In this document: piece by piece, positions 1 to 55,640 of the stretch | Layout: every line of letters begins with the position of its first letter | Numbering within the stretch: the stretch's first letter is position 1 | Program-made: the position numbers and the translations under genes | Origin: Marsupella aquatica | Taxonomy: Eukaryota > Plantae > Marchantiophyta | Direction: 5' to 3' | Length of the DNA: 64,000 nucleotides | Assembly (NCBI GenBank): GCA_973895155.1 | Contig: OZ316893.1 | Location: 14,662,645-14,726,644, forward strand | Notes under the pieces: generated by a model | What the model was told of the DNA's origin: nothing | Database searches by the model: none | What the model saw: the letters and a program-made list of their open reading frames with translations, nothing else

Positions 1-3000
1 GAGTTGTTGACCTTCCTGCTCCGAAATGTGTTACCAGATGGTAATTCAATTCCAAAAAATATGTACGAGGCTAGGAAATTGATGTCTAACCTTGGGCTGA
101 ACTATGTGTCTATTGACGCATGCCCTGATGGGTGTGTTCTCTTTCGCAAAGAGCATGCAGATAAATTGACATGCCCTCATTGTGGTAAGCACAGGTACAA
201 GAATGTAGGGAAATGTACACACCCTGCCAAGGTTCTTCGTCATTTTCCTCTCATTCCTAGACTACAACGTCTGTTTAGATGCCCTGCCATTTCCAAGCTG
301 ATGACATGGACTCCTGATAACAAGAGCAGTGATGGCCTGCAGCGTCACATTGGAGATTCCAACCATTGGAAATTTGTTGATGAGAGGTGGCCACAGTTTG
401 CTACAGAGAAGCGGAACTTTCGATTTGGTCTATCACTGGATGGAGTAAACCCATTTGGAGACAAAAACAACCGTTATTCATGTTGGCCGGTTACGCTGCT
501 AAATTACAACCTTCCCCCATGGATGACTACAAAGAGGTTTTTTGTCATGATGGTGCTGTTAATCCCTGGACCAGCTTCTGTGACCGAGCAATTCATAGAT
601 ATCATGTTGGCTCCAGCAGTGGAAGAGTGGAAGACTTTGTGGATAGAAGGGGTGTTAACCCATGATGTTCTGAAGGGGCTTCTTCGACCCAGCCCCTTTA
701 GACTGCATGCAATTTGTTTGCTGGATATAGCAGATTACCCAGGCCATGGCATCATATCTGGACGAGTGACAAAGGGCTATGTGGGGTGCACACCATGTGG
801 GAAAAATGTGACAAGTGAGTGGTCGCATGCCCTGCACAGTATGAAATTTCAGGGGCATAGAAGGTATCTGCCTGTTGATCATCCTTACAGGCACACACGG
901 TCTCAAATTGCACACTTCAACAACAAAACAGAGCTTCGTGGCCCACCACAGAGGGTCACCAGAGAGCAAGTCCTGAGGTGGGCAGCCAGGAAGGCTGATT
1001 GGGACAAGAGAAGTGCCACTGATCGAGAACCTGAGGATCCAGTGGTGAAACATGGTGTGAAAAGACAGACCTTGATGGACTTGGAGTTGGAGTACTGGAG
1101 GGTAATGTACTTAGCCTCCAGCCCCTGTATGATTGCAATTTTAGATTGGAGCAATGGTGGATTGATGTTGGTTACAATCCTCCTATGTGGTTAATTAGTG
1201 TTTCTGTTGTTGAATTCTTTGCTTTGTGGAGTGCAGGAATTCGAGCCCAGCAAACACAATGTGGACGTCATGCACATTGAGAAAAATATTTGTGAGAGCT
1301 TGCTGAAGTTCTTGTCGGGTGAGAAAGATACAGGAGCAGTTCGAGCTGATATGCAATAGAAGGGGATTCGCCCTCACCTTTGGTTGAAGCCCCATGCAAG
1401 CAATCCCAATGTACTTCTCAAGTTCCAAGCTCCCTATGTGTGCACACAGGATGAATGGAAGACATTCTTGTATAGATTGAGCTGTCTGAAAGTGCCCTCT
1501 GGCTATGCTGGTGCCTTCAAGAAGCATATTACAAAGAATAAACGTGGCAGTATGAAAACACATGACTACCATGTGTTGATGCAGCACATTCTGCCCCTAT
1601 GCCTCAGAGGTCTCATGCAGAAACCAGTCCGTAATGTCATTCTTCGACTGTGCAATGTATTTCGCCGTATATGTGTGAAAGTGTGGGATCCCCAAGGATT
1701 GGAGCAGTTGAAGCAGGATGCTGCTTATGTCCTCTGTGACTTGGAGATATACTTCCCCCCTGCTTTCTTTGATGTTATGACTCATCTCCTAATCCATGTG
1801 GTAGAAGAGCTAGGGCAGTATGGGCCAGTCAGTACCAGATGGATGTACCCTATGGAGCGATACATGAAGTTGTTGAAAGGTCATGTGAGAACATACTACA
1901 GGCCAGAGGCTTCCATGGCATTGGGGTACATTAAGGATGAGATGTTGGGATTCCTAACAGAGTACATGGCTGGGTCTGGTGAAGCTATGACAAGAGTTTG
2001 GAAATCTGGTGAAGATGATGGAGTGAGTGGCGAGGTTGTTGAAGGTGTGGGACGTGCTGTTCAGCTGCCTGTTGCGATTCGAGACAAGGCTCATTCATAT
2101 GTGCTGGCAAACACAGAGCCTATGCAACCATGGTGGAGGTGAGTGATTGAATTGACTTGCCTTTGTTGTGATGCTTCTTGTCTGTTCCAAGGGTGATCTT
2201 AGATTGTCATGTGTTGTTTAGACTAACTATGCCTGTACCTCATATTGCAGGGAATATGATATGCAAAAAGCTGCACACTCTGGGCAGCAGGATCCCTTCC
2301 CACAGTTCGAGCAGTGGATTCGGGTGACAATTCGAGAGCATAGTAGACATCACCCAGATATGGAGAAGGATTTGTATCTTCTATCTGTGCCACCACGATT
2401 GTCTATTCTGACCTACAAACGGATGAGAGCTTATGGAAATCATTATCGAGTGAGGGATGAGCAGGGTGACCATTGTGTATCATATGATTGTGGTTTGATT
2501 TCTGTGTTTGAGCAGAGAACCTCTAAAGAACAGAGGGGGTGGATGAAGATGGGTTACGTGGGGGAGTTGACCGACATTTGGGTGTTGAATTATGGTAACA
2601 CAAGTGTCCCAGTGATATTGATGAAGGGATCATGGGTGAAATCAGAGTGGCAGAGACCAAGGGCCACCATGAAGCGTGATCATGATGGGTTCTTGTTGGC
2701 CAATTTTAGGTCCAGAGTACCAGAATGGTCTGAGCCTTTTGTTTTCCCTAGCCAAGTTGAACAGGCTTTCTTTGCAGATGTGGAGGAGTCACATGGCTGG
2801 AGGGTGGTATGCCATAGCCAAGCACGGAACAGGCGGATGGATGGAAGTAAAGTAGAGTTCAGTTTGGATGACCATGCTGCATTCGAGCATCCTAGTCATG
2901 AGACTGTACTTCCAACTCGGGCAGGGACTGACTACATCCCCTTAACATTGAGAGAGACATATGATGAACCTGGGCAAATGGAATATGATGAGGTTGATGA

Positions 3001-3010
3001 TTTGCAATAG
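1..3010 (+). pseudogene. CACTA TnpD transposase (Transposase_21 + DUF4218 + DUF4216), 5'-partial, with premature stop
   Basis: Motifs DACPDGCVLF, LRHFPLIPRLQRLF, LSLDGVNPF, YNLPPW, DYP, DVMHIEKN, MKTHDYH, RWMYPMERY, EPFVFPSQVEQ. Exons <1-1101, 1237-2138, 2251-3010 with GT-AG introns; in-frame TAG at 1357-1359 (probably CAG>TAG). Confidence 0.92.
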
Positions 3011-3187
3011 GCAACAGCTGGCGATTGGCAAGTATGAGGTTGAGGATGACTACCTGCACAGAGTCACAGAACGGGAATTGTTGCCTGGAATGATGTTTAG
3101 GATAGTTGGATATGCATGAAATTGATTGATACTTTGAATTTAGTGTGCTGATTCTCCCTGTTTGGTTGTGGGTGCTGTGCAGAAGCT

Positions 3188-6100
3188 ATGGGGGAAGAGG
3201 GTGATGACATGGAGACAGACATGGGGCTTGGAGAGTGGGGTGAAGAGGAAAGATTGGATATGGATGGAGACCCAGATGCAGGGGGCTCACAGAAAAATGC
3301 ACCTATGCAAGATGCACAGGGCCCTCATCAAGTCCCAGGTAGGTGGGCAGCTAGAGAGAAATCACATAATCCATACCTTAGAAGGAGCCAGAGTTATTGG
3401 CAAGGGACGCCTGATAATTATGATGATGACTATGATGGAGTAGAAGATGGATGGGATGAATATGAACACCCAGAGCGTGGTAGAGACGGGTACAGAGGGC
3501 AATGGAAAGGTGAGGAGGATGATTGGACAAGTAAGTGCCTTGTGCTAGTGATTTTGTGATGGTAGTAGAGATTTAGCTCAATATGCACTTATCTGATGTG
3601 TAGCTAGGGCAAAGAGTTTATCTTACAGGTCCATGAGTGTGGCATGTACCTGTTGGTATGCAGACTCTGATTGGGACAATCACGAAAACAACAAAGGCCA
3701 TCCACGTTCAGATAGGAGGCAATCATTCACAGGCGGGAGAAACGCCCCTAATTCATCAAGACAAAGCAATAGGACAGGTGGTCCAGAACCATCTATGCGC
3801 CAAGGGAGAGGTAACTTGGTCATTGCAGAATTGCTCTGAAGTCCACTGTATATTTGGCAGCGGGATTTATGATTCATACTTACCTAATGTAAGTGACTGT
3901 AAATGGATCCTGTAAATGTGCAGGGACTCCAGGGAGGTTTGGACAATGCAATCCAGGCCGTGGGGGGAGATCAGGCCGTGGAGGGACCCCAGGCCGTGGG
4001 GGGACACCAGGCCGTGGAGGGACACCTAGTAGCGCTTCAGGGAGTACCAAGGCAGGAGACAGTAACAAATTTGGTAAAGTAGAAGTGAATTCCGAAGGTT
4101 GGATAACTCCCACATGTGATGGTAAGAACCGTTGGCATTCTGACCTAAGAGGAGAAGTATTGCGTTGGTTAGATTTGAGCATTACAGAGTTTAGGAGTCA
4201 GAACAAAGCTGATTGGGCTGCTATCTGCAAGGACATTCTTGAACGGTGGGAGTATGTTGGTAATGATGGTAAGGGCCCAGTTGAAGATTGCATATCAGAT
4301 TATGCAATGAGGATTTTGAAACAAGAGAGGCATAGGTTGAAAAGGATATGGATAGACAATGGTTCTAACAGGAGAATGCCACCACCCCCATCATTGGAAC
4401 TGGATCAATGGACACGGTTAATCAAAGGGTTCATGTCGGAGGCTGGACAGAGCAAGAGTGAACTGATGTCAAATGCTCGAGGCAAAGTGAAACACCTTTC
4501 ACAGGCTGGGAGAGGAAGTTATGCTCCAGTGAAAGAACAATTGGTAAGGCAGTGACATGCCTGATAGTAAGCCTCAAACTTATCATCTTGCTACCATTAT
4601 TACATTTTCATTGACAATCAACACTTGGTTTCATTCATATGTATGTTGATGTGGACTGCAGAAGAAATTGACAGGTGAAGAACCATCAGCACAAGAAGTG
4701 AGAGAGGAGTTCATGAAACAAAGGAGTGAGGTGACAAGTGTAACTTCCAAACAGGTGATTATGTTGTAATTCTGTATGTTCTGTGACTATTTGGCCTTGA
4801 GCATCAGAAAGAAATGTAGTAGGAAGTAAGCAACCAGTTCTTGGGGACAGTTATCTGAGATATGTAAGCTGTGTTATGACAGGGAACTGTTACAACTCTC
4901 ACAGAGATGTGTGAACGGTTGAAGTCATTAGAGTGTGGACTCCCTCAAGTGGAAAGTAAATTGGCTGATCGTTTGGATATTGTGGAGGCATCTGTAGCGA
5001 ACCTTCTTGCATCAGTGGAATCTAATTTCAAGCTTGTGATTGAAAAATTGGGTGGTTCCCAACCAAACAATGAGGGCAACATTGTACAAAGTGTGCCCTT
5101 GTTAACAAAAAAGGGAATTGGCAAATCTGACACAGGTATGGAAATGACACCGGCCCATTGTTCATTGTGTCCTATGTTCAAATGTTAGAAGTAAGTTTTC
5201 ATGAATTGAGTGAATGGTTTGAATGCAGGAAGAGTGGAGGCAGAGAAGGACCCTGTAATCAGTAAGCAGAAGGCAAGAAGGTTGCTGAGACAGGTAACCT
5301 GCTATGATCCAGTACATTACATTTGAAAAGTGCATGGAGTTTTGTGAAGCTTAAGCCGGTTGGAGGTAATCTTTTCTGTAAGAACTGGTTGGATGAACTG
5401 GGATCTGAAGTGACATCATGATTGATGTATCAGGTGATTCAAAGAGCAATAATGAAGAAGATGTGCCCAGTGCCTCAGTGACCATAGCCAAGGAGGTATC
5501 AGGTAAGCTGATGCTTTAAATTCCTCTATATGAATGTTGAGCAATAATTCAGTGGTTAATAGATTCAACGTGAATATTGTGGTGTGTTTATTGATCAACA
5601 GAAGCAGACATGGAGCATATGGCAATGGCAAAGAAGGGGAAGAAGGCTGTTCATAATGGTAAGGAGATAGTGACAACTTTGTGGTTGGTGACATGTACAT
5701 TTAGCACATGTGATGAGTGATTCACTTATGTTGGACATGACACTGAATTGTAGTTGATGCAGAGTTGACAGACTCTCAACCAAGTGGGAGCAGGGTGAAG
5801 CGACGTCGAAACTTGGGTGCAACATTGGATGCAAGTAAGATTGTAGATGCTTCAATTGAAGCAAGTACAATGTTGGCAGATACTGAGATGATGTCGCAGG
5901 GAAATCCTGCTACACAATCAGAAGTGTCAAATATGGATGCAGATTCTTTGAAGAAGAGTGTAGCCAATTCTCGATCACCAGCACAAAACACTCGTGCCAA
6001 AGTCATGACTCGCAACCAAGGTATGAATAATGTCATGTATAAGCCACCCAGGAAAGCCAAGAAAAATAGCCAGGGTAAGGTGGAGGTGATAGCCACAGCA

Positions 6101-6358
6101 GAGCCAGTCCATAATCTTCTATCATGGGAGGATGACTCGCAGGTATGTGTGGGTACAGGCATTTTGCGACCGGATCATGCAAAATTCCATGGCAAAGTGG
6201 TCCCGGATGACCATGTAGTAGTGTTGTTGACTACAGTGATTGTATCTGATTGTAATTTGCCATTTCCGAATAGAGACGATGATCCACCTCAGGAAATAAT
6301 TGCAGATGCAGTAGGATCTCTTGTGCTCTGGCCATCAGAGTGTGTTAGTCTGCAGTGA
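3188..6358 (+). CDS. Multi-exon TnpA-like accessory gene of CACTA-1 (exon structure approximate, intactness uncertain)
   Basis: Acidic N-terminus, GRGGTP repeats, core exon ~3924-4543 (PPPPSLELDQWTRLI...SELMSNARGKVKHLSQAGRGSY, Transposase_24-like), and C-terminal exon with the En/Spm Tnp1-type signature VGTG...KFHGKVVPDDHVVV...LPFP...DAVGSLVLWP; several short GT-AG-bounded exons between them. Confidence 0.72.
3925..4028 (+). repeat. 18-bp coding tandem repeat (CCAGGCCGTGGRGGGACA-like) encoding GRGGTP
   Basis: About 4-5 imperfect copies visible; translation PGRGGRSGRGGTPGRGGTPGRGGTP. Confidence 0.85.
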
Positions 6359-6859
6359 CTGAATGCAAGTGTAGATAGAATCATGTGAATTGTGTCACAT
6401 TTTGACATTGCCTTGGAAAGATCCAAGAAATATCTGTACCAATTTTTCCATTTGGTAAAGAGGATGAAGGAGCCGTTGTGTGTGACATTGATATTTCTGA
6501 ATTTTGTATGTATGAAACAATTGATTGATGTCAAACTATGGCTCTATGGTGATTGTCTATGATACTTGAATCTGTTTTGTATCATTTCAGTATTAGTGTG
6601 TATGGTATAGAGGAATACTTTGTGACCTTCTTTGTAGTCTATGAAGTTTGAATCTGTGAATTCATATTAGTGTACATGGTATAGAAGATGGCTTTCTGAA
6701 ACTATGTATTCTAATGTTAACATGATGAATGGTGAACTTATAGAGTGAGTTCATTCAAGTACACAATAAAACATGAATGCAATATGTTATTTGTGCACAA
6801 GAGTGGGTTCATTCCAAGTAGTATAGTGGGGTCTTCATCACTCATATCCAGTTGACATG

Positions 6860-7185
6860 AAAGACTTATACATACCCCACAAAGTATATTTAAAGACTAC
6901 CCTCCATAACCTTTTTAGTCGTTCCCAACGATTCACCATCTCAGCCCATAAAAGACTGAAAACGACTCACCAAAGCTACCCACACAAAGACTAAAATAGA
7001 CTGAAAATCCAGTCTATTAAACGACTTATAAACCAGTTCTATAAAGGACTCAGTTGATTATAGTAACAAAACATACGACTCGCAGTCCTATAAAGGACTG
7101 GAGTCCTTCCCAGTCGTTTCCAAGTCCTATACGGTACTGAATAGTCGTTTAATGGGGTCTAAATACCCCCCAGTTTCTACTAGTG
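6860..7185. repeat. Subterminal repeats and right TIR of CACTA-1
   Basis: Many direct and inverted AAAGACT/ACGACT/AGTCGT/TATAAAGGACT motifs followed by the terminal TTTCTACTAGTG. Confidence 0.8.
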
Positions 7186-9906
7186 CATACACATAGTTTA
7201 TGTGACTAAAAGCAGCCACTTCTGCCCCTAACTTCATCACTCTCTTGATTGAATCCAATGGATTTACAAGTTTCTTTCCATTGTGAATAAAATCTTGATC
7301 ATGGAGCCCATAAGCATGAGAGGTTGCTCCAACACTGATCATGGAGTGGGTTAGTAACCATCCTTCCCACCTAAGATTTTGTCTAGGGCCTGGAATTTCT
7401 CTCCCATTGTAGTCTTCTATCATTAATTTCCTTCTTCTTGAGTCCCCATCACTAGCATGGCCCAACAAAGGTCCAACAGCCTCCAAGCAATGGGTGGCCC
7501 ACATTGACTGCAATTGAATCCATTGCTCCCTGACATAATCAGCAGTAAATTGACCACATGTACCAGTGCCCATGGCACAGAGACGAGGAAACTTGTCACA
7601 CAAAGGATTTACCATAATGCACCTAGCTTGGTGCCCTACAACATTAGTGTCAAAGGCCTCTGTAATGTTATTGAAACCAGTTTCACCCTCACCCACTTTT
7701 ATTGCCAGGCCAACACCACAAGTATGATTGTCTTTTTTCCCACAAAACCCAATAAGTGTATCATCCTTAGGCTGCCACCTCACTGTCTTTTTCACACAGG
7801 TTTCATCCTCTGCCAGATAACAAGGAATAGGCCCACATATTCCAAGTTGACTCTTCAGGTTTGAGTAAACCTGAGCAATGAACTTGAATTGTGAAGCATG
7901 CATGCCAGCACGGAAGACAAACATGCCACGCTTGTCTCTTTGTAGAGTGTTCAAACTAGGACCCAAACCATTTGTCTGGAGACAGTCTACTACCCGTCTG
8001 CCACCATGTAGAAACAGTGCTTGGCATAGGAGCTTTGTTCCTTTCCTCCATCGGTGGCCTGCCTTGCTTCGATTCAAGTTAGAAGCAACATCTTGAAGCA
8101 TATCCCATAATGCTTGCCTACCTCCAAAAGCCCCTTTCTTGTGTGCTTGAACAATGGAATTACATAATTTCATTATGTCCTTCCTGTTAATTGCCTCCTT
8201 ACATATCTCTTTCAGAGATGGTTCTTTAGCTGTGAGCATAAGCAAACGGTGTTGAAACCTCCTTGCTAGTTTTCTCTCCTTCCTGATAATTCTATGATAT
8301 TTCTTTGCTTGCTCTTGGACCTCCTCAGTTGTAAGGTAATCTATCCGCCTACCTTGACCTGTCCCTCTTTGACCTCTTTTCTCAACTGCAGTTACCTCTC
8401 TGAACACCCGTAATCTAAAGTCTGTTAGACTAGGTATGGTGAAACAATGGTCACAAGTCAACTTTATAAACCCACCACCAAGCCTTGATATTCTGGTACA
8501 CGATTTATGTCTGAAGAGACCTTCAATGACACAAATTTCATCGATCTCCTCACACCACACTTTGGCCTTCACTAGGGGCTCTGAATATCATAGGCAGTCT
8601 TCTTTATGTTGATCTTTAGGATATTCTTGATAGGCCTGGACTGGTTGCCATATACCCACTCACTTTGCCATAGTCCCCAACACAACAAGGAGAGGTCATC
8701 GTTATTACCTTTGCCTTTATCGGACGATGATAGGCCAGAGGCACTGCTAGAGCCCTGTTGACTCTCCTTGACAGATAGAAACCCCTGAATGGTTTTTTGA
8801 TGTTTAGCCCTCTTATCAGCCTGACGTGGTCATCCTGCACAGCCTGAGAGAATAGTAATATTGCTACTCACTCTTTGGCTTTTAGAAACTACATTTAAAT
8901 GATTGACTCCCACACAGTGAGTCTGGAGATTGGCCTCCAGATTCCGTTGTTTGGGTATCATCACCACATGTTCACAGCAGAAAATGCAGAACAGTTTGAA
9001 CTTGTGCAACTCCATTGGCTCTCTATTGATATCACCAACAATTTTGAAAGTTTTCTGTCCAACAGACTGTGAATCATTCACAGATTCCACTATTTGAACA
9101 TGTTGTTCAAGAGTGGCTTTATCACTCAAGATAGATGCTGCAGCTCGACAACTTATCTCTACAGAGTCCAATCTTTGACCTCTGTTTTTGGCAACATTCC
9201 TGGTATGCGTGGGTGTGATCAAATGCTTATTCTTGAAGTTGGTGAAAGCATTAGTAATGCTGGCTCTGTCCATGCTACCTAACTTTGAGGCACCTTCCAC
9301 ACGAACATCACATTCACAACATTCTATCTTCCCACATGCCACATTCTCAATGTCCCATGTGTTCACCTTCCATTGATGATCCTCACATTGAATGAATTTC
9401 ATGTGATCCCTCAATTTCTCCACTTGTGTTTGCGAGACCTTGGGAAGATCTTTTGTTATACATAAAGACTTGAAACTTGCTTGAGGATCAGTCTCTACCT
9501 CTGGGGTTTCAATGTCCACAATAGGTGGACTTTCTATAATTGGCTGGTCTAGTGGTGGACCTGCCATGACAAGGTCATCCACCGACAAGCTAAAAGTGGG
9601 AGAGAGACCATTGGAAGCTTTGCTGTCTAAGAGAGGTTGATCTTCACCTCCATCCTCAAATTCATATTTGGGAATAACAATGATTTTCTTCCTACATTCA
9701 TCTATGATATGGGCTTTTTCCCATTCCACCTCCATTTGACTATTGAGATTCATATCGTAAAATTGAAACTCAAATTTAAAGAGACACAGAGTCTCTAGCT
9801 TCAATCTGGCATCGGCAAATGTGTCATCAATCTTGTAACTAATGGATCCTACAGGTTTAGGATCCACAGACACATTGTCCAATCGAAAAACAGTTGCTGA
9901 GGGCAT
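7186..9906 (-). pseudogene. Zinc-finger + P-element/THAP9-like DDE transposase gene, decayed and truncated by the CACTA-1 insertion
   Basis: ORFs 8830-9906 and 7186-8572 join through TGA 8830-8832 (likely CGA), a frameshift near 8615 and a TGA near 8588. Motifs YLAEDETCVKKTVRWQPKDDTLIGFCG, GHASDGDSRRRKLM and QDFIHNGKKLVN resemble the P-superfamily DE..IK....Y....D...GF, SD(G) and D..H..K..RN blocks; N-terminal CxxC...H...H fingers. Confidence 0.7.
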
Positions 9907-9979
9907 TTAGTCAAGTCTGCAAAAATTTCACAAAAAAAACAATCAACATCATCCTGAAATTCACTACAACATATTTTGC

Positions 9980-10460
9980 CCTTTTGCGAAGCTCATTTGA
10001 GTCCGGACACACGTTTGCGATTCTAGATGCTTCAAACCGTTGATGACTCAATACGCATCGCAATTTGCGATACTTGTGGTATCGCAACTTTGGTCTTCCA
10101 TGCGATTTGCATCGCAAACATTTTGCGAACTTTATTGTATCACAATAGTTTGCAAAACTACAGAGATTACAAAACACATTACGAAGGCTCCGTGACCGCT
10201 CCGAAAGTCCGAAACCATAGTAACATTAATGATGCGAAACAATTAGTATTGGAGGATGTTTGCGAAAAGGTTAGCTTCAAACAATTTGCGATGGGTTTGT
10301 ATGGCAAATGTGCGAAACGATGTGGATGGTAAAGGTGGGATGGTCTGGATATCGCAAAATAGTGAAGCGTATAGTATGGAATAATTGAGAAACGGTTTAA
10401 ATGGCAGAATTGCGATTTGGTTGGGATTTGTTTAGTTTCGCAAACAGTTTGCAAACGTTT
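9980..10460. repeat. TTGCGA/TCGCAA motif cluster A (upstream of P-like gene)
   Basis: About a dozen copies in both orientations, e.g. TTTTGCGAAG, TCGCAATTTGCGATA, TCGCAAACATTTTGCGAAC, TTCGCAAA. Confidence 0.8.
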
Positions 10461-10861
10461 ATGTTAGACTTGTGTGTGCATCTAGGTTAGAGTTTGAATG
10501 GGGGAGGAGGAGGGAGGGAGGTGAAAGGTGAAAGAGGGAGGAAGGGAGTTGGAAGGTGGATGAGGGACGGAGGAAGAAGGGAGTCCAAAGAGGGTTTACT
10601 AAAAATAGGAGAGACTTTAGCGAAGAGGGAGGGAGGAGAAAAAGCTATGGAGTTTTTGGAAGAGGAAGGAGAGTTTGGGTTCAAAGAGGGAGGAGGGATA
10701 AGGGAGGGAGTACCCATGTCACTTATATGCATGACCTCTTTTGAAAGTAGGAGTCCAAAATGAAAATACCTACCACACTAATGGTGTATAAAATATTAAT
10801 TAAGAAACAACATGAACAATCCATGATATAGATTTTTGGTTTAAATATCCATAAGTGTCTC

Positions 10862-13800
10862 TCATACTTGGTCACCTTCAATGTCCTCTACATCTGACAC
10901 AAAAATAGTGTCTAGCTTGTCTGAAACAATAGAACGAGACCGTGGCACATATGTGATGACAAGTGACCACTCTAGGTCTAAGGGGTATGGAACGTAGAAA
11001 CATTGCTCCAAGTGAGATGGGAAAGTAAATGGCTCTGACGTTTGCCAATGGGATGCTTGAAAACTAGTGGCACTTGTCCTCAACCGTGTAAACCCACTCT
11101 CATCTTGGAGTACAGTGCGATTATTACCAACAAGGTTCACTTTGAACCACTTGCACTTGAAGACATACTCCTCAAACTTAGATTGGTTGTCATATGAGAC
11201 CACCAAAATCTCCTCTATCTTCCCATAGTGTGGCACAACATCACGAACAATGTTCCTGTCATGTCGGCTACTCCGGGAGTCCTGACAAAACTGCCCTTGA
11301 ACTCCACAATCAAAAGTACGAGCCCTCTTCTCATCAAGGGAAGAAATCCTGAAATTAACAAGACCCATATATTGTTACTACTACACAAAAAACACTAATC
11401 ATGTTATGAGGAACCTTTCATACCAAAAGAGAAAAACACACTTATCTTAAGTAAAATGATTACTATATCTTAAGTAGTAGTACATGAATATGGAAAACAA
11501 GGTTAGGAACTAGTGAAACCTGAAGTGTCTCCCTTGGGTCCACATGGCCGTCTTGGATGTTACCACTCTCAAAGGGCCATGAACAATGGTCCGAATGTCA
11601 TTTGTCATAGTAGGAAACTGTGAGACATCTCCTCCTTGTGCCAAAATGCCATCCAACTCAACCAACTTTTCCTTCATAAACTCATGCAACTTAGGAAAAA
11701 TCCTTGCCCTTTGACTCATTCTTTTGGCATTGTCATAAAACTCCCTCCATTCATCCATGACATTGCTATTACTCAACATGAATGTATTCAACTGTGTCCA
11801 CTCTGTTGATGTAAGCATGCGTGTTTTTGTTGCTCCTGTTAAACAGTCCTCCTCTTGCCTCTCCTCCATCCAAGTACGTGGTAAAGTCCGATCAATGGTG
11901 GCCAAGATGTTACTACAATAAAACATGCTCTCTGCAGCCAAGTATCCTGTAGCTATGCTTCCCTCCACTCGTGCACGGTTACGTACATAAGCCTTCAAGA
12001 CTGACATGTAACGCTCAAGCCAGTACATACATCGACAATGAACTGGACCAACAATGGCAACCTCCCTCACAAGATGCACAAGTAAATGAACCTGACAATC
12101 AAAGAAGGAAGGAGGGAGGGCCTTCTCCAACTTGCAAACCACCTCAGCAGCCAATACCTCCATTCCAGGAATCTCTTCCACATATATCTCCTTTGAGCAT
12201 ATCCATCTCAACAAACGACCCAATGACCAAATGGCATCTTGCACTTCTTTGGTCCCCAACCCTATAATTGCCACTGGCAATATATGCTGCAATAAGCGGT
12301 GATAGTCATGTGTCTTGAGATACCGTGGCCATTTGTGATTGTCCTCCATCCCAAAAGCTTTCCTCAAATTGGCACCATAGCCTGTAGGAAACCGCATCTC
12401 CCCTATACGATTCCGGAATTCACGTCTTTGGCCAACACTAAGCACCCAAGGAGCAGAAGGACGATGTTCCAAACCTGTGGCAGGATCAACTTGTACCCAT
12501 ACATCTGGATGCATTTCCAACTCTTCACATGCCTCCCTGAAGTTAGTGTCCTTCTCCCCATAAAAATGAGCTATCAACACCTTCCCCACATTTCCCTCTA
12601 TGTGCATGGGGTCTAAAAGATGGCGGATCTTCAACTCTGACCAATAGGGCAAACTGGCTAGTATACTCCACCTCGTCAACCCAGTACCATCAAAGGTGAG
12701 GGGATCATCAGGGTCTGCCACCCTATCAGCTAGTGACTTCCAATGCCCAAAAGTTGTTGGTTCCGGAATTTCCCGCATATCACCAAGGGGCATGTCAAAG
12801 GAGGAAAATAAAAGTGGGTCAGACCTCATCTCATGCCCCATCGGAAGAAACTTTGTATGCCCAATGTAAACAATCTTCCTAAGCCATGGGGACCAAATTG
12901 CCATATCTTGCAATTGTGGACCACAGGTGGAGCAAGCTTTGTACCCCTGAGTTTGCAATCCAGAGACAAAGCCAAACCCTGGTTACACCAAAAATAAAAC
13001 CAGACTAAATGTTAGGGTTGTCACATGACAAACAAGTATATTAAAGAGCATATCAAAGAAGGGTGGCATATGGTCAAAAAGTCATCTTACCAGGATAGTC
13101 ATGCATTGTCCAACAAACTACCCCTCTCAATTTAAATACACGTGGAATGCCTCCTATATTTTTCCTGCCATCGTATGCCCACACTCCACCCCACAGTTTT
13201 TGGAGTTCTCCAATCAATAGTGCCAAATAAGTGTCAAAGTTCTTCACCTTTTTTGGACCTGGAATAATCAAAGACAGCAAGAGGAACCCCTTCTTCATGG
13301 ATAGCCATGGTGGAAGGTTGTAATTCATCACAACCACAGGCCAAACTGATGTAGGTCTTCCCTTGCCTCCAAGGGCATGAGGACTAACCCCATCAGATGC
13401 CAATCCCAACCTCACATGACGAGGATCATGTGCAAAGTCTGGCCATGTTTCCTCAATATGTTTGACTGCAGGAGAGTCAATTGGCAACCGCATAACACCA
13501 GGCTCTGATCGATGAGTCTTATGCCATACCATCAACTCTGCCAAATCAGAACACCTGTACATGTGCAACAATCGAGGAATGATGGGAAACCAACGAACAA
13601 CTTTTCTTGGCACCTTCTTTGTAATCATGTTGGGGTCATACCATGGCTCATGACATTCAGTACACTGTGTCTTCTTCTCATCGGCCCCATGAAATAACAT
13701 GCAATCATTCACACATGCATGAATGATATGATATTCCATGCCAATTGATGAGAGAACACGCTTGGCCTCCTTCCAAGTTCCTGACAACACATTGCCAGAA

Positions 13801-14275
13801 GGTAACATAAGGTCATGGCAAAGTGCAAACATATCAGATAACAAGGCATTGCTTGCCTTGTGTTTGGCCTGTAGATTCATCAACCCCAAGATAGCAGAAA
13901 GACGACTCAAACGAGCACCCTCATAGATAAGAGTTCGGGCATGTTCCTCTGCTTCCTCCCATTGGCGCTGTCCCTCAGGGGTATGTCTTGGTCGTGGATC
14001 ATTGGGGGGCACATGACCTCCTTGATCAGCAGACACCTCAGCATCATCACCAGGGATGTCAACACCAAACCAATCAACCATAAAATCATCCATGGCTCTA
14101 TCTTGGTCATCAATAACCTGTTCATATGTTCTGGGTACATTGCGATCAGGGTTGTTGCTTCCACTGTCACTTGATGAGGAATGTGACTCAGAGCCTTTCC
14201 TTCTTCCGGCATACCCATTTCCCGATATGCTGCTCTCAATCTCCGCGGTAACATATTTTGAGAGGGTCGCACATT
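10862..14275 (-). pseudogene. CACTA-2 TnpD transposase (Transposase_21, DUF4218, DUF4216); probable 1-nt frameshift near 14197
   Basis: Exons ~14275-13091, 12978-11520, 11348-10862 joined by in-phase GT-AG introns; motifs HACVNDCMLF, FPIIPRL, LASDGVSP, YNLPPW, HDYPG, DPMHIEGN, LKTHDYH, MYWLERY, EPFTFPSHLEQCFY. The first coding exon is probably the TAD exon 15569-15336. Confidence 0.88.
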
Positions 14276-14418
14276 CTAAAAACAATGCAAACAATTGAAA
14301 GTTACAAAGCAAATAGTTACAACATGTAGAAGAATATATGGGGGTGTGCAAACATGAAATAATATCGGTACTAGTGTAAATACAAAATGTGGCCAAACGC
14401 CATGTGTATGGTCATTTT

Positions 14419-15569
14419 CTAATCCCACACATAGTGAGTAAACAACTCATCACCTGAGTGAATGGTCCTAGTAGCTACAACCAGACAATGGTCATGATGA
14501 TATGTCTGGCCATAAGGGGCTGGTGGAGGACCCTCAATGAAAACCCACTCACAATTTTGCCTACGCTTGGGGCGAGTCCCCACAGTACTGTTTATGAAAC
14601 CAGCTATATTCCCAATTCGTATGGGGTCCCCATCTATCACCCGCTGCTCACTATACCTCCTAGTGTTTCCATCAAAAGTATCTAACTCCAAGGCATAAGT
14701 CTTCCACTCAGGATGTTGTGCAAGGATCATGTTCCAATGTCTTCTCTTGTAGATGGGTCCACCATAAGGAAACAACGTAGGTCCTTCTCGACCGCGTCCA
14801 CCACTACCACTCTCGGTATCCACAATGATGTCTTCACAAGCAAAAACTCCATAGCCATGTCTATCCCCAAGTGTGGAAGGTTTGATAACCCAACGTCTTC
14901 CCCAAACCTCTACCTCCTCACCATAGGAAAGCTCTTGTGGCAAACCAAGAGTCTGGGGATCCCAGTCCTTGATGATAGGAACACATTTGCCAGTAAACTC
15001 ACAATCACCCCACCTACCGGTAACCACTGCCTTGTACAAATCAGTATCCCCTTGGGGCCGTCTCTTGGAACGCTTTCTCCCTCTTGGGACAACAGGCTCA
15101 CCCCCAACTACCCTAGGACTGGAGGGGGCTGTTGCTAGACCCAAGGCTTGTGAGAATGCATTGCCTATAGCATCTAGAACACCTTGTGATGGGACATAAG
15201 GTGCTGATGCCGCAGGTCTAGGCCTACTAGATACCTATTCCACCCAAACCAAAACAAACAACGAGAGGTGTGAAATTAAAAACCTTCACCATTGCGATGT
15301 GGAAATAGGGTAGAAACTAAGGCGTAAACACTTACCACATGGGATGAGGAAGCCCCTGTTGTATGACGTCCGTAACGTCCATATCTCTCAATATGCTGGG
15401 TGCATATATAGGACTTTTGGGAAACCTGACCCACACATTTGGCACATTGGCAAAGCTGACGGGGTGGACCACGAGGAGGAGGTGCAGTCGTGTGAGGTTG
15501 AGGAGGAGGTGGTATATCTTCATCGGAGGAGGAAGAATCTGTGGTGGAGATCTCAGAAGATGAAGACAT
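14419..15569 (-). CDS. TAD + SET-domain protein (putative lysine methyltransferase), exons 15569-15336 and 15234-14419, 349 aa
   Basis: Exon 1 has CQCAKC...CTQHIERYG (CACTA transposase-associated domain pattern CxCxxC...H...G). A 101-nt phase-0 intron GTAAG...AATAG joins it in frame to an open exon with SET motifs IKPST..HGYGVFA.EDI, PYGG, IDG....GNIAGFINS, NCE, VVATRTIHSGDELFTHY. Confidence 0.85.
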
Positions 15570-15999
15570 TGCCCCTACAAAGATGTATAATTTGCAAGTT
15601 AGGGGTTATTACCAAATAACATCACAATATCAAGCTGGACAAATGTAAGTTCTCAAGTAATGATGACATGAAACCAAACACAAAAGGAACACTAAAAAAT
15701 ACCTTTCTGAGACCCAGGCTCAGCGGTGCCAATTAATAGGTCTTGTGGCTCTAAAATAATGAACCGAATCTGGAAGTATGAGAAAAGCTGCAAGTACACA
15801 AAGCGAACACCTTACATACATGTCCTCTTCATAGATAGTGGGAACCAAAATTTTTAATTACATGAATAAGCCTAACTAGACCCATCTATTTTAGTCCGTA
15901 CCTCCAGATGCCCGGGCTCTCACGATGCATACGCATTAGCTAGTATCAATTCATGCAAAAGTGCCGCACCCTGCAAGTTGTCATAGCTCCTCCTCCTTT

Positions 16000-16470
16000 G
16001 TTAGCATAAAACCCATGGAAAAACCATTAAAACCCAAAAGATCCATAAAACCCATTAAAACCCATAAAACCCATGGTAAAACAACTAAAACATTAATCTC
16101 ATCTAACCTTGCTTTGCCTTTTCCAAACCCTCACCCCCAAACCTCTGACCTATTACAAAAACCTAGACCCTCACTCCCAATCCCCTTCCTCTCTTTTGTT
16201 TTAAACCCTAAACCCTTGCTTGAACCCTAAAAGCCTACAACCATAAATGCAAACCCTGCTTAAACCCAAAATTAAAGACTTAAACCCTAAACCCAAACCC
16301 AACTTTAATCCTAAACCCTTTCCTCACTTATTAATTTTAAACCAAAACCCAACTCTTATCAAAATTAGCCTACACCCACACCATGTATAGCTTAAAAACC
16401 GGAAGGTTTGACTGGTAATCTCGCTTTTAACCCCTAACAAAACCAGCTTCATCCAAGACCCAACCCTAAC
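16000..16470. promoter_or_regulatory. AAACCC/AAACCCTA (telobox-like)-rich divergent promoter region between TAD/SET/TnpD and TnpA genes
   Basis: Numerous AAAACCC and AAACCCTAA motifs between two divergently oriented genes; promoter role is inferred. Confidence 0.4.
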
Positions 16471-16609
16471 AAACGCCGGGATTTGAAACGGCGGAATTTC
16501 TTAATTACACAAAAGGGCATAGTATAACTTACATGGCCTAAACAAAAGGAGGAGGGAAAGAATGTGAAAAAAAATTTTGCCAGGAATTGCCACGATATTG
16601 AGAACTGAC

Positions 16610-16830
16610 CTGCTTCGCAACCTGCTTCAGAATTTGGTCACATTATTTGCGAAGCACAATGTTTCACAACAGCTTCGGAAAAACAGAGCCCAAGAGCGTT
16701 TTTTCGCGTCTCTGCAGCTTTGCGAAGGCTTTGCGAAGCGTGTGGTTTTGCATTGGTTTTGGAAAGTTGAGATACTAGTTGCGAAGCAGGCTGATTCGCA
16801 AATTGCGATGCGGACTGCATCGCAAATGTG
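16610..16830. repeat. TTGCGA/TCGCAA motif cluster B (upstream of TnpA-like gene)
   Basis: TTCGCAA, several TTGCGAAG, TTCGCAAATTGCGAT, TCGCAAA. Confidence 0.8.
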
Positions 16831-16939
16831 TTTTGTCTGGGCATTCGGACCTTCCCGCCGGGTTACGAGGCCCATTCGACGTTTTTTGAAGTGAGGGAGG
16901 GCAGGAGGAGAGCTTGCGCGCGCTTGGTGTTGGATAGCT

Positions 16940-19005
16940 ATGGATTCTAGTGGAGGGCGTGGAGGGGATGGGGCAGGGGCAAGTGGGAGTGGGAGTGGGA
17001 GTGGCAATGGCAATGGAGGGAACAGGAATGAGGAGAGTAATCAATGGACGAATTTGATGGCCGAGCATCTCAATGCCACACAGCTGAGCCATTTGGATTT
17101 GAGTACACTAGCTGGGATTGCTTCTTTGAGTGCAATTCTAGGGCAAGCTTTGCAAACCGGGGTTGCAGCAGGGCAGGCTCAGAGGGAGAAAGAGGCAAAG
17201 GCTGCAGCTGAGGAGAAGGCCAGAGAGAAGAAACGAAAGAAGGAGGAGAGGGCTAAGGCAGGAGTACTCTCTCCTGCAGCCCTCAAAAATAAGAGGAGAA
17301 GGGAGGAACGAGATGAGATTCGAGCACAACGTGAGGCGCAGCGGAAAAAGGAGGAAGAGAGGAAGAAGCTGCCATTGATTGCCTTGGTTGAGGGCATTCC
17401 TACTGAGTTGGCCTACACTGGGGCAAAGAGCACTATCAGGCTTGCTGTGAGGACTAGCTTTGCATGAGGTGTTGAGTGGGGGAAACTAAGCAGAGCAGAG
17501 CAGAGGAAAGTAATGACTCAGGTCAAAGATTCATTCAGAAATGGAGCAGAGATTGATGACCAGTGGCTTGCAGATAGAATTTCGAATTCAATGTCTCAAG
17601 CACGATACCATGATAGGAGGAAGGTGAGGGCCTACCTAGCAAGCTTGCAGGAGTACAGGAACGTGAGGATGCCAGTGCAATTCACAAAGGATGTGTGGAA
17701 CGCGTTCTATAAGGTCGAGGTGCAGCTGAAAGTAGCCAAGGACCTCCAATTCTGGAAGGAGAAGGAGGCCAAGGCACTTCAGGCCGGGAAGTCAGACAAA
17801 GACCTCAAGGCATTGGCTGAGAAGGTCTCTCAGCTGCAGCACATCGTGGATGAAGTGGGGACACCACCCCAGAAGTTCATCCTTGCAGCAAACCGAGTCA
17901 GCAAATGCCCCAAGACCACACACAAGATGGGGCAAGGTGGACTTCCCAGCCTGAAAGCAACCTTCGTGAGTCCTCTCCCCTCCTCCCCTGCTTCTTTTCC
18001 TTTGCCTTCAACTGTTGTTTGCTTGCCTGCAATGCCCCTCGCTGACCTCTGCTTTACCCCTTATGGCCTCCCCTTTCGTTTTAGGTCACCCTGACACATT
18101 GCGTGCCTTAGTCATTTCTCGGATTTTTTTAAAAGCACAGTTTGCGAAACAATTGCGAAGCGGGTTGCCTTGCAATTGTTTCGCAAACTCTATTATAACC
18201 TTTTTCCCGTAAGGTTTGCGAAGCCATTGCGAAGCAATCCGATTCGCAGTCTATTTCACAAACTTAAATATATTTGAATTTGCGAAGGTGGGACTTTCGC
18301 AAAGCTTGTTTCATTTTGAAAAACGTTTAGTGTCGAGTGACAAATGTTTGTTAGGGTAATGGGGTTTTTTTCTGGTTAGGGTACCCTTTTTACCCTTTTT
18401 AGGATTCCTTTTTTGCTTAAGTACCCTTAGTTACTAACCCGGGCCCCTTATGTTTTGGTGTTTCATTTTTTTGTGGTAGTATAAGAGGTACCGCCGCAAG
18501 ATAACAACAAAGGAGATGGAGATAGGGGCAGAGCATGGGGCCAGACATCTCTTTGAGTTGGTTGATGCAGAGTTGGCTAGTGTGAGTGATTTGTAGTACC
18601 CTTTCTAAACCCGCACCCATTCCATTTATAAGGTTTATACATTTTTCCTATTAACCCTAAACCCGAATTAACCTTGTGACATGGAAGCAGGATAAGGAGG
18701 AGCAGGAGGGGAGTGAGGATAGCAGTGAGGAGGATAGCGGCGCTGATGATGGGGACACTACCGGGGCCACCACGAGTGGGTCCAGAGGGGCAGGGAGTGT
18801 TGCCACACCTAGCACACCAGGAGACCAGGAGGATGATGATGAGGATGATGACGATGATGAGGATGAGCCAGATGGGGAGGAGCAACAGGCACCACCACCA
18901 CCGCCACCACCACCACCACCCCCCTCCCATCCAGCTTGTCCCGCCCAAAGCAAGAAGGACAAGGGAAAGAGGCCAGCAAAGAGGAGTAGGCGAGCTCCAT
19001 TCTAG
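16940..19005 (+). pseudogene. TnpA-like accessory gene of CACTA-2; exons ~16940-17965, 18480-18581, 18691-19005; in-frame TGA at 17465
   Basis: ORFs 16940-17467 and 17513-18094 are in the same frame across one TGA (likely CGA); basic coiled-coil, helical core, KTTHKMGQGG (En/Spm Transposase_24-like H..G..G), acidic/Pro-rich last exon; GTGAG donors and TAG/CAG acceptors. Confidence 0.62.
18130..18305. repeat. TTGCGA/TCGCAA motif cluster C (intron of TnpA-like gene)
   Basis: TTTGCGAAACAATTGCGAAG, TTCGCAAAC, TTTGCGAAG, TTGCGAAG, TTCGCAAAG. Confidence 0.8.
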
Positions 19006-19219
19006 AGGATGCAGATGTAGTTCACTCCATATGGCATATGGATTAGTCAAAGGACAGTGTCTTGGTATTTGATACCCCATAGGGTTTTAGAAAACCCTAA
19101 TTTTTGTACATTCAGGGATTTTTGGCATATATAAAGTTTTGCTTTGGTATCTTCATGTGGAGCAATAAGACCCCAACCCAATTATGAACCCAAATATACA
19201 AAACCCAGCCCTCAAACTA

Positions 19220-19792
19220 TCCTTGCGAAACACATGCGAACGCCATACTATCGCAAACTTGCCATACATTGAGTATTGGAACATTGCGATACTTTTGGTT
19301 CCGCAATTGTGCGACACCCTGACTGACGCAGTTATGCGATACCATATGAATGGCAACGGAATTGTCAAGACAACAGCTTCGCAAATAAGTTATGGTTTAG
19401 AGCGCGTCGCAAACCGATAAAGAGTCTGTCGAGATCGCATAAATGTGATTTATGTGCGATAAAATAAGTTTCGCAGTGTGCGAAGGTGTTGCAAAGGGGT
19501 TGCGAAAGTCCGATTGCGAAGCTGTGGGTTTCAAAGAATGCGAAAGGGTTGTGATGCGTAGCGTTTCGCAAACGCTGGAATTTCATAATTTGGTCCTTTG
19601 TTAGTTGCGATGGGACAGGGTTCGCAAAAGGGGTTGGTAGTGTTGTAGTGATTGTTTCATGGGATAGACTTTCCATTGAAAGAGAATATTTTCTATAGAC
19701 ACAGACCTAAAGAGAACCCAATGATTTGAAGACCATATTCACAGGACCAATCCCAAGAGAGCCTTGCCCCATCCCGGCCATTTCTCCTAGTG
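19220..19792. repeat. Subterminal TTGCGA/TCGCAA cluster D and TIR of CACTA-2
   Basis: Dense motif copies in both orientations at 19220-19630, then terminal TTTCTCCTAGTG. Confidence 0.85.
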
Positions 19793-24446: not shown

Positions 24447-24870
24447 CTTCCAAGAAGGTGCCAACATCCCCAACATCATGTTCAAACACTCCCCATCATC
24501 AGTTCAAACACTCCCTCGATCTATAGCTCAATACCAATAAAACAAATCTCAGCCGTCTAATAAATTCTCCAAAAGTGTACTTATTATAGGCACGTATTGA
24601 GGCACATATTAAACCATGTCCACTCTACAATATCTAGACATGTGTAGCAATCCGGCACTGATGTGTGGCAAGCCCATATTAGGTACCCTTGCAAAATGCG
24701 ACTTGAGATATTTTTTTAATAACCCCTACATTCATTATAATCAAAAGCATCATTAAATAGGGGCTTCTTAGTTTGTAAACAATTATAACAATTAGTCAAA
24801 AATGGGATTAAAAAACCCCTTGAGATGTTCGCACGAGGGGTCCCGTATTAGTTAAGCTAAGGGCCCAGGG

Positions 24871-25890
24871 TGCAGGGTATTGGTGGCCCACAATGCACAA
24901 GGACACCTATAATTTTATTAAATCATGTGATCCGTGCCAGAGAGTAGGGAAACCCACTGCATCTTCTAAGTGGCCCCTAACTCCCATTCTTCCCTTGGCA
25001 CCTTTTGAAAAGTGGGGTATAGACTTCATTGGCCCCATTTCCCCAGCTGCTCGTCGGAGTCGTAGTAAGTATATCATTCTTGCAACTGATTATGCCACCA
25101 AGTGGGTGGAGGCTAAAGCAACCAGGAAGAATGATGCGAACACTGTTGCGGCATTTCTATTTGAGCATATTATCACTCGCTTTGGCTGTCCCCTAGAACT
25201 GGTGAGTGACCGTGGCCTGCACTTCCTAAATTCCACTATTGAGTTGATCACGGATTTATACCTCATTAAGCACCGCAAGACTACTCCATATAATCCACGG
25301 GCGAATGGCTTGACCGAACGAGCTAATGGGATTATGGGAAAGATCTTAAATAAAATGGTGGCATCTCACAAGACTGACTGGGATGTAAAATTGCATTATG
25401 GGCTTTGGGCTTACCGTACTGCCAAAAAGATTACAACCCTTCGAACCCCATTTTATTTAACTTATGGGGTTGATAGTATTATCCCTATTGAGTTTTCCAT
25501 TCCTACTGAGAGATTACTTATTCCTGAGAGATTCACTCCTGAAGCAAGTCTAGAGAGTCGGTTTGTTGATATTACTAAATTAGAAGAACATCGAATTTTA
25601 GCTTTAAAACATACTGCTGTAGTACAAGAACAACGGAAACACTCTTATGATAAAAAGCTTAAACATGTTAAGTTAGCTGATAATGATTTAGTGTTAGTTT
25701 TTGATTCACGCTACATGCTTTTTCCGGGTAAATTACATACCCATTGGATAGGCCCTTCTAGAATTGAGAAATAATGGCCCAATGGTTTCGTATCCTTAAC
25801 CACTTTAGATGGATACCCCTTAGATACTAGAATTAATGGCTTTAGATTAAAGCAATATCACTTGTCTTCCACTCATGAGGACATGTCGTA
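24871..25890 (+). pseudogene. Ty3/Gypsy integrase (3' part of pol)
   Basis: GYWWPTMHKD...CDPCQR zinc-finger end, FEKWGIDFIGP, ATDYATKWVEA, VSDRGLHF, YNPRANGLTERAN, TPFYLTYG, GKLHTHWIGP; stop at 25772-25774; 5' end cut at a TIR-like GGGCCCAGGG. Confidence 0.93.
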
Positions 25891-25990
25891 GTTTGAGTGG
25901 AGGGCTAGGTTAGGAATATTTCATACCTGCAAGGAATATTAGTATGGAATGGCTTAGAATAGTAGATTATGCTCGGGAAATTTTTAAATT

Positions 25991-26140
25991 TGTGGACGCT
26001 TCCTGAAGCGTCCACACTAGAGAGCCAGATCTGTGGGCCGCTTTCTGAAGTGTCCATGAGATAATACGACACTTTTGGGAGGCGTCCGCCTGCTGACTCG
26101 GGATTTCCGTCCGGATTTGGGCCGCTTTCTGAAGCGTCCA
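25991..26140. repeat. Cluster 1 of palindromic GGACGCTT-YCTG-AAGCGTCC repeats
   Basis: TGTGGACGCTTCCTGAAGCGTCCACA at 25991-26016 plus two or three degenerate copies. Confidence 0.85.
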
Positions 26141-26626
26141 GCATAAGTTAGGAATTTCTGAACATTCTCGAGTACGGTGATGGATTGTGACATCTAACGG
26201 GTCGAAGAAGAGAAACGGCGAGTGGTCCAAGAAGCCAAGTTCAGTAGCGCTCACTACTGATGGTTGACATAGAGGAGGCGGAGGCCCTGATTGAAGTAAG
26301 AGTGGAGCTGCGACAGAGGAAATTGCAGATTGAGCGATGGCGGAAATAGAGCTAGATGTCACTGCGCGTCCGATAGTTGTTGTGATACCATTGAGTATAC
26401 ATGATCGAAGGCGATTCAGAGAAGATTTGACGACTATGGGCTTGAAGAATCTCTTGAAGTTTCCTTGGAGTATTTGCGAATTTAGCTTGATCGATTGAGG
26501 CAAATGGGACGGAGAGGAAGGACCGGAAATACGCGCGAGGCCAAGCAATTGGAATGAGGAGCTCATTTCATCAATTTATTCGACTCCGAGCGTAGGCCAA
26601 GGATTACAGAAAGTAGAAGGCGAACC

Positions 26627-55200: not shown

Positions 55201-55640
55201 CACACCTCTGCTTGACTACAATATCTATTCTCTTGTTGTGTAGTTTGCTGCAATGTCTGAGACCTTGGTCCTTTCGATCGTCTTCCACTCCAATGGCCAT
55301 ATGTCCTATGAAACTCATGCTCACCTTCTGACTCTTCATCCTCTTCCTCAGATTGAAGTTGCCACTGGTTTGGTTCCTCCGTAGCATGTGAACCAATGTT
55401 GTCATTGTCACCATGGTCATCACAAGTTGCCTCATCATCGACTACCTGTTTCGATCTAGCAATCTTTCCAAACCTGCATACACGAATACATCGATTTGCA
55501 AACGTCTTGTATCTGGACATGGCTCGACCATTCATCACAACCAGAGAATCTAGGCACCGATCAAACTCTTCAAAGCTATTGAAGTGCTCTCCCAACTTGA
55601 TTCGAGCAGCCTCTACTGCCATTGTAACAGAGGAAGACAT
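52280..55640 (-). pseudogene. MURA-like Mutator transposase (MuDR DBD, DDE, SWIM zinc finger, CCHC knuckle), frameshifted
   Basis: LGEHFNSFEEF, CPFRVHC...HTC, SLDACHTKNRKY, MSDRQKGL, HAQCANHLRAN, TSNPTEQANS, CTCMELQEMVWPCQH, CSRCEKVGHNKQSC; 1-nt deletion in the A-run at 54211-54214. Confidence 0.9.

Follow-up and report, generated by a model that had tools for sequence, protein, structure and literature searches.

The window, by which we mean the whole 64,000-nucleotide stretch of Marsupella aquatica DNA that was analysed, contains a complete CACTA (En/Spm) element. The terminal inverted repeat CACTACAACA was found at 9962 and 19650 with an ATT target duplication on either side, and an empty site in which 9958 is joined to 19651 was recovered in contigs of runs X1–X3. 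Assignment to CACTA rests on the terminal inverted repeats, the 3-bp target duplication, a TnpD-type transposase and subterminal repeated motifs, the motif TGCGA[AT] being clustered at both element ends (50 of its 76 copies in the window lie inside the element). On the minus strand, two non-coding blocks are followed by exon 1, a 101-nt intron, an exon encoding a SET domain, a 143-nt spacer and the TnpD exons, and an accessory gene runs divergently on the plus strand. The features were as follows.

9962–19650, unstranded: complete CACTA (En/Spm) element, 9,689 bp, with CACTACAACA ends, ATT flanks and an empty site
9962–9971, plus strand: terminal inverted repeat downstream of TnpD; target duplication ATT at 9959–9961
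19641–19650, minus strand: terminal inverted repeat at the other end; target duplication ATT at 19651–19653
16940–19005, plus strand: accessory gene in divergent orientation, resembling TnpA in position only; exon limits fixed to 17966
16401–16900, unstranded: internal TGCGA[AT] cluster between the divergent genes, 8 copies
15902–15937, minus strand: likely 3' part of a non-coding 5'-UTR exon, ending AG/GTA (slash, exon boundary); shared with loci L001 and L004
15703–15787, minus strand: likely second non-coding 5'-UTR exon (CAG/ ... AG/GTAT); boundaries aligned in the window, L001, L004 and L005
15336–15569, minus strand: exon 1, coding part, 78 aa; ATG at 15569, Ser/Pro-rich start, CxCxxC..CxxH..G zinc-knuckle, TAD-like core
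15334–15335, minus strand: phase-0 donor GT of exon 1 (GTAAGT)
15235–15335, minus strand: intron 1a, 101 nt, ending at acceptor 1 (TAG); TAG in 25 of 28 anchored loci
14419–15234, minus strand: SET exon, 271 codons plus stop; PF00856, with GYGVF at 127, PYGG at 156, FINS at 213 and ELFTHY at 263
14276–14418, minus strand: spacer, 143 nt, 67% A+T, 42% T, ending at acceptor 2 (TTTTTAG)
13091–14275, minus strand: TnpD exon 2 (NVRPSQNMLPRRL ... Transposase_21); this copy lacks one base between 14198 and 14197
11520–12978, minus strand: TnpD exon 3, rest of Transposase_21 plus DUF4218 (Pfam)
10862–11348, minus strand: TnpD last exon, DUF4216; stop at 10864–10862

Sister contigs were ~99% alike to the window element, which differed from them by several private changes, namely an in-frame TGA at 17465–17467 in the divergent gene (T>C at 17465 in the sister contigs, giving CGA), a loss of 3 nt at 11846, and gains of 4 nt at 15731 and 6 nt at 16982. 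Because the changes are private and the sisters so similar, the window element is most simply regarded as a decayed copy of a young family. An earlier reading made from the sequence only had proposed that one extra base near 14197 was needed for the spliced frame to run into TnpD and that sister copies should be searched for it; one G was indeed present behind 14197 in sister contigs from all four close runs (X1–X4), and a net +1 was also seen in more diverged subfamilies (runs X3, X4 and X12). By this comparison, the window TnpD is frameshifted by a private one-base loss, and the missing base may be an assembly error. As the window stands, exon 1 joined to acceptor 2 gives a frame that closes after 200 codons; when the break is read with an N, exon 1 plus TnpD is stop-free over 1,121 codons, and in locus L014 the TnpD exon is open for 410 codons from acceptor 2. 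TnpD showed purifying selection (dN/dS 0.12–0.15).

Several features outside the element were also recorded. Two long minus-strand ORFs beside the insertion (7127–8587 and 8830–9906) had no Pfam match and carry the acidic motifs AEDET and SDGDSRRRK, resembling, by eye, another DDE transposase; the CACTA element is located 5' of these ORFs, and this flank appears to be multi-copy in the runs. A second CACTA element on the plus strand (1–7000), cut by the window start, has DUF4218, DUF4216 and a weak Transposase_24 match. Elsewhere in the window were an LTR-type integrase region (24824–26575), a BTB/BACK gene (37039–38310), a SWIM-finger ORF (52509–53390) and 41-nt perfect inverted repeats around an ORF without a Pfam match (54170–55728).

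Within the element, the divergent gene recurred, alike in position and orientation, in 10 of 35 related loci, where it was ~55% conserved. It matched no Pfam family above cut-off, and its identification as TnpA gained no support from sequence, with neither a Transposase_24 match nor any likeness to the ORF of the other CACTA element. Its head-to-head arrangement with the transposase differs from that of Arabidopsis elements, which are described as head-to-tail. A second internal cluster of 8 TGCGA[AT] copies (17901–18400) lies inside this gene. The upstream blocks at 15937–15902 and 15787–15703 were tried as a coding extension of exon 1, which was rejected because of stops and of frame-breaking gaps between families; their splice signals are kept and their frame is not, an unusual degree of conservation for non-coding DNA.

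Recomputation reproduced every coordinate of the earlier reading; exon 1 (15569–15336) measured 234 nt and ended in the phase 0 that had been claimed, followed by the expected GTAAG donor. Its designation as a transposase-associated domain (TAD) held for the CxCxxC..H..G core and not for the Pfam model, as PF13963 gave no match at E ≤ 0.1. Exon 1 was also compared with an angiosperm TnpD N-terminus profile built from 77 of 82 N-termini, a test that is partly circular because this very Cys/His pattern had guided the trimming of the profile; within that limit, residues 38–66 scored 10.4 bits over 29 residues (E = 0.074), the exon 1 frame ranked first among 1,286 window frames, and hhalign gave a probability of 57% (P = 1e-4). 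On this evidence exon 1 has the TAD core only, and the TAD match is weak and partial. The core residues of the finger were invariant in 12 of 12 sequences, and exon 1 was under purifying selection (dN/dS 0.12–0.15). Among the matches listed, 74 of 117 angiosperm TnpD homologs carried CxCxxC..H...G in their first 300 residues, and 46 of the 243 proteins compared carried the finger. The distance from finger to HAC was 224 in the window element vs. 158–210 in angiosperms (n = 62), and no finger motif was present between SET and the TnpD body.

The SET exon matched Pfam PF00856 with 27.3 bits (cut-off 22.4; E = 5e-6), the Pfam SET model was matched by 21 of 25 aligned homologs (E ≤ 1), and dN/dS values of 0.23–0.25 indicated purifying selection. 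Splicing to acceptor 1 (AG 15236–15235) had been predicted to yield an in-frame 349-aa protein, and we obtained the same open product, with its stop at 14421–14419. SET methyltransferases are marked by GxG, YxG, ELxxxY and the NH(S/C) cofactor motif; of these, GYG (127–129), YGG (157–159) and ELFTHY (263–268) were conserved in the SET homologs. Asn215 (SET-exon numbering) was kept in at least 90% of alignment rows, the His of the NH motif was replaced by Ser (NS), and no post-SET cysteine cluster followed the domain in the SET exon. A structure model of SET was of low confidence (pLDDT 57.5); with it, all Foldseek matches listed were SET proteins (best E = 3.5e-3), and the best structural Z was 4.3 (rmsd 4.2, 101 aligned residues). 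A model of this quality does not allow a substrate to be named.

Among 42 matches to the SET exon, the named homologs came from Calypogeia fissa at 73% identity, Sphagnum at 58–66% over nearly the full length and Riccia sorocarpa at 40%, which by themselves place the host among the mosses or liverworts. A PDB sequence search with the SET profile gave no match at E ≤ 1, and relatives were found in none of 10 viral contig candidates and in one of 27 prokaryote genome candidates, a 35-residue match that was taken as chance.

A metagenome scan, with motif anchoring applied to all loci, yielded 35 loci from 99 candidates at ~50–78% protein identity, nearly all of them copies of one peat-moss-like family (about 70% identical in protein), plus L001, and so not independent events. 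In consequence, acceptor 2 was compared at the DNA level between two families only, and this comparison was supplemented by Riccia protein models. The order finger, SET, TnpD, together with the divergent gene, recurred in related loci. The donor GT was kept in 21 of 21 loci (GTAAGT in 18), acceptor 1 read TAG in 25 of 28 anchored loci (the exceptions being two G>A changes and one anchor in the wrong intron), and acceptor 2 read TAG in 18 of 20, with one G>A and one locus, L017, that retains the AG with one codon deleted. Conservation of the splice sites among copies, the lack of which would by its own terms have refuted the sequence-only reading, was thus borne out across the metagenome loci. 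Intron 1a varied among families in sequence and in length (101, 111 and 116–118 nt) and kept phase 0, and the spacer measured 136–147 nt in related loci. In Calypogeia fissa and six Sphagnum species, public gene models place the link between exon 1 and SET at this very junction; exon 1 joined to the LPRRL exon was seen in none of the 243 proteins compared. A run search listed no RNA run, and contigs of the eight runs compared contained no joint at 15336>15234 or 15336>14275, a result that does not bear on expression. Two other splicing outcomes were dismissed: retention of intron 1a, which meets a stop at codon 98, and a CT..AC joint (15203>15330) in one X3 contig, which differs in its ends, is interrupted by unknown letters and was attributed to a diverged copy.

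At acceptor 2, TTGTTTTTAG ends at 14276 and the following phase-0 frame reads NVRPSQNMLPRRLRAAYREMGMPEEG before departing from the TnpD frame, as had been proposed. Its AG belongs to an in-frame TAG in both the window and the peat-moss-like family, so no upstream frame reads through into TnpD, and none of the four ATGs in the spacer is in the TnpD frame. In ungapped comparison of the window with L014, identity was 17 of 57 nt before the TAG (a figure that understates the intron) and 48 of 60 nt after acceptor 2; over the seven codons that precede the next Met it was 14 of 21 nt (Fisher P = 0.004, a small ungapped test). These codons, NVRPSQN in the window and NIRPSED in L014, differ mostly by silent changes (dN/dS 0.16, on 7 codons only). 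At the TnpD start, the three Riccia models have the residues VPDFEILPRRL, VPDIEMLPRRL and FSQLSRRH.

Taken together, the comparisons support well the earlier proposal that SET is an alternative last exon, served by one first coding exon and two phase-0 acceptors, and we strongly infer the two junctions 15336>15234 and 15336>14275. The reading we prefer, to which we give a probability of about 0.7, is that exon 1 is spliced either to SET or past SET to TnpD, and that the resulting finger-SET protein likely marks the chromatin of the element.

Each arm of this choice has a rival in which exon 1 serves only one partner. If exon 1 belonged to TnpD only, SET would be a nested gene without a finger, made either from its own start or after a 5'-UTR exon had been joined to acceptor 1. 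Such a product is possible in the peat-moss-like family, where codon 4 of the SET exon is a Met and serves as the start of many gene models; L001 and several homologs also have a Met about six codons or fewer past acceptor 1, and it is here that many 263-aa models begin. In the window family, however, no Met occurs in the SET exon before codon 169, which is in mid-domain and past both GxG and YxG, and no in-frame ATG occurs in intron 1a, so the window SET needs exon 1, which by these frames is its sole ATG-bearing phase-0 source. This want of a start codon in a second, diverged family appears to us the strongest argument at the DNA level for the finger-SET junction and, with the non-coding nature of the upstream blocks and the phase-0 agreement of acceptor 1 with exon 1 across families, it makes the nested gene improbable. 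We consider it quite improbable, too, that exon 1 belongs to SET only and that a TnpD without a finger begins with the Met of MLPRRL, the eighth codon past acceptor 2. That Met recurs in the peat-moss-like family and in one of the Riccia models as well as in the window, and the public models link exon 1 to SET and, among the 243 proteins compared, never to the LPRRL exon; but the Met is missing in two of the three Riccia models, the seven codons before it are conserved with synonymous changes, most angiosperm TnpDs have the finger (74 of 117 among the matches listed), and the gap from SET to acceptor 2 is only 143 nt.

The remaining alternatives concern the SET product itself. A fused protein of finger, part of SET and TnpD, made through a donor inside the SET exon, is suggested by four public gene models (P0028, P0192, P0050 and P0051) and by a consensus GTGAGT at 14552, which also occurs at the matching place in L002. 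This donor, however, is in phase 1 and leads to an immediate stop when joined to acceptor 2; of the 20 GT sites that lie in phase 0 within the SET exon, none agrees with the consensus at as many as 4 of 6 positions, the four models use differing acceptors, and three of them lose the conserved ELFTHY end that all full homologs keep before their stop. We regard this fusion as very improbable for the family at large, while P0051 (Riccia sorocarpa), modelled as a full SET-TnpD fusion, may be a true one. SET also precedes TnpD in the diverged Riccia sorocarpa family to which P0051, P0050 and P0042 belong. An explanation that accepts both isoforms holds that SET is catalytically dead and acts by binding or as a dominant-negative regulator of TnpD. 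Inactive SET domains with such changes at the NH motif and post-SET region are known, and the window SET reads NS and lacks the post-SET zinc cluster; active PR/SET enzymes likewise lack the His, and the conservation of GxG, YxG, the Asn and the terminal Tyr is what would be expected if cofactor binding and catalysis were kept. A dead enzyme seems to us unlikely, if deserving of real weight, and we lean slightly towards the finger-SET protein being an active predicted lysine methyltransferase.

Under the preferred reading of one exon 1 shared by two products, transcription would begin at a single promoter upstream of 15940, between the divergent genes and beside the TGCGA[AT] cluster, and the transcript would carry two non-coding 5' exons and exon 1 ahead of two alternative 3' splice sites. 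Splicing at acceptor 1 would make SET the last coding exon of the 349-aa finger-SET protein. Cleavage and polyadenylation would then most likely fall in the 143-nt spacer, where no clear polyadenylation signal was found, and would remove acceptor 2; the spacer would be at once the 3' UTR of the SET product and the 3' end of the long intron. Use of acceptor 2 would skip SET inside a 1,060-nt intron and give the 1,121-aa transposase. As the acceptor 1 form loses acceptor 2 and the acceptor 2 form skips SET, the products would be mutually exclusive per transcript. The finger-SET protein would most likely methylate chromatin lysines at copies of the element and keep them expressible, an anti-silencing role that we find plausible at somewhat less than even odds; that the shared finger does the targeting, tethering the methyltransferase to the transpososome or to element DNA as the sequence-only reading suggested, is a more tentative idea.

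Alternative splicing of the maize En/Spm element produces both TnpA and TnpD, and changes from a spliced to a split-gene layout or back have been described (PMC13547354; 10.64898/2026.08.24.746577). As far as the available text of these sources goes, maize En/Spm and Arabidopsis ENSPM3/7 share with the window a CACTA transposase gene, a second product made by alternative splicing and domains split over exons. Those elements make, as their second product, TnpA, an HTH protein that binds DNA and is encoded 3' of TnpD, whereas in the window the second product would be a SET protein whose exon lies 5' of the catalytic exons and which would have its N-terminal coding finger in common with the transposase; the window element also has a separate divergent gene. 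The maize parallel drawn earlier is loose, given the SET product and a divergent gene in the accessory role. CACTA transposase introns have been reported in flowering plants (PMC4158355, the available part of which does not mention moss).

SET-domain genes have been found in other transposons, namely as captured genes in HarbingerS and MuDR elements of Phytophthora (cited in PMC12730594) and in Helitrons (cited in bioRxiv 10.1101/2025.02.11.637652). These resemble the window in being DNA transposons with a SET-domain gene and differ in belonging to other superfamilies and hosts and in carrying SET as an accessory gene, no shared exon being mentioned in the available text. Closer to CACTA, the gene PAG2 of red-algal Plavaka, of the EnSpm lineage, has a SET domain (bioRxiv 10.1101/2025.02.11.637652), so that Plavaka and the window element are both EnSpm/CACTA-superfamily elements with SET; according to the portion available, PAG2 is a separate gene combining DNA-methylase and SET in elements of 17–19 kb, whereas the window element is 9.7 kb long, has a TnpD of the plant type and carries SET inside its transposase gene. 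The VANDAL protein VANC and TnpA, which are anti-silencing factors, serve as a model for the proposed role in that each is an element-encoded helper near short repeated motifs; in the descriptions available, both bind DNA, lack a SET domain and have demonstrated activity, whereas the role in the window is inferred. In SETMAR, SET is joined to a transposase, and in CSB-PGBD3 an alternative last exon inside an intron gives a fusion; both are host genes with a captured transposase exon. In the window, by contrast, a mobile element owns the SET exon and keeps SET out of the transposase.

Our literature search, which left Repbase Reports, supplements and most subscription papers outside its scope, returned no land-plant CACTA element with SET or a shared TAD exon, and no described function for the transposase-associated finger. 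SET-carrying transposons and En/Spm alternative splicing are both known, and their combination had no match in this search. A more doubtful extension is that the element represents a bryophyte-wide CACTA lineage that modifies its own chromatin: the splice choice would hand the finger either to the transposase or to a catalytically active histone methyltransferase, which the finger would deliver to the same element DNA or transpososome, and splicing would then decide between marking and jumping.

Known plant anti-silencing proteins such as VANC and TnpA bind DNA, and the sources available to us included no histone-modifying enzyme among them. A SET domain under purifying selection in active-looking CACTA families of mosses and liverworts is a candidate for a transposon that writes chromatin marks. 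The shared exon would also offer a handle on the transposase-associated finger, since one stretch of 78 residues would work with two catalytic partners that are unrelated to each other.
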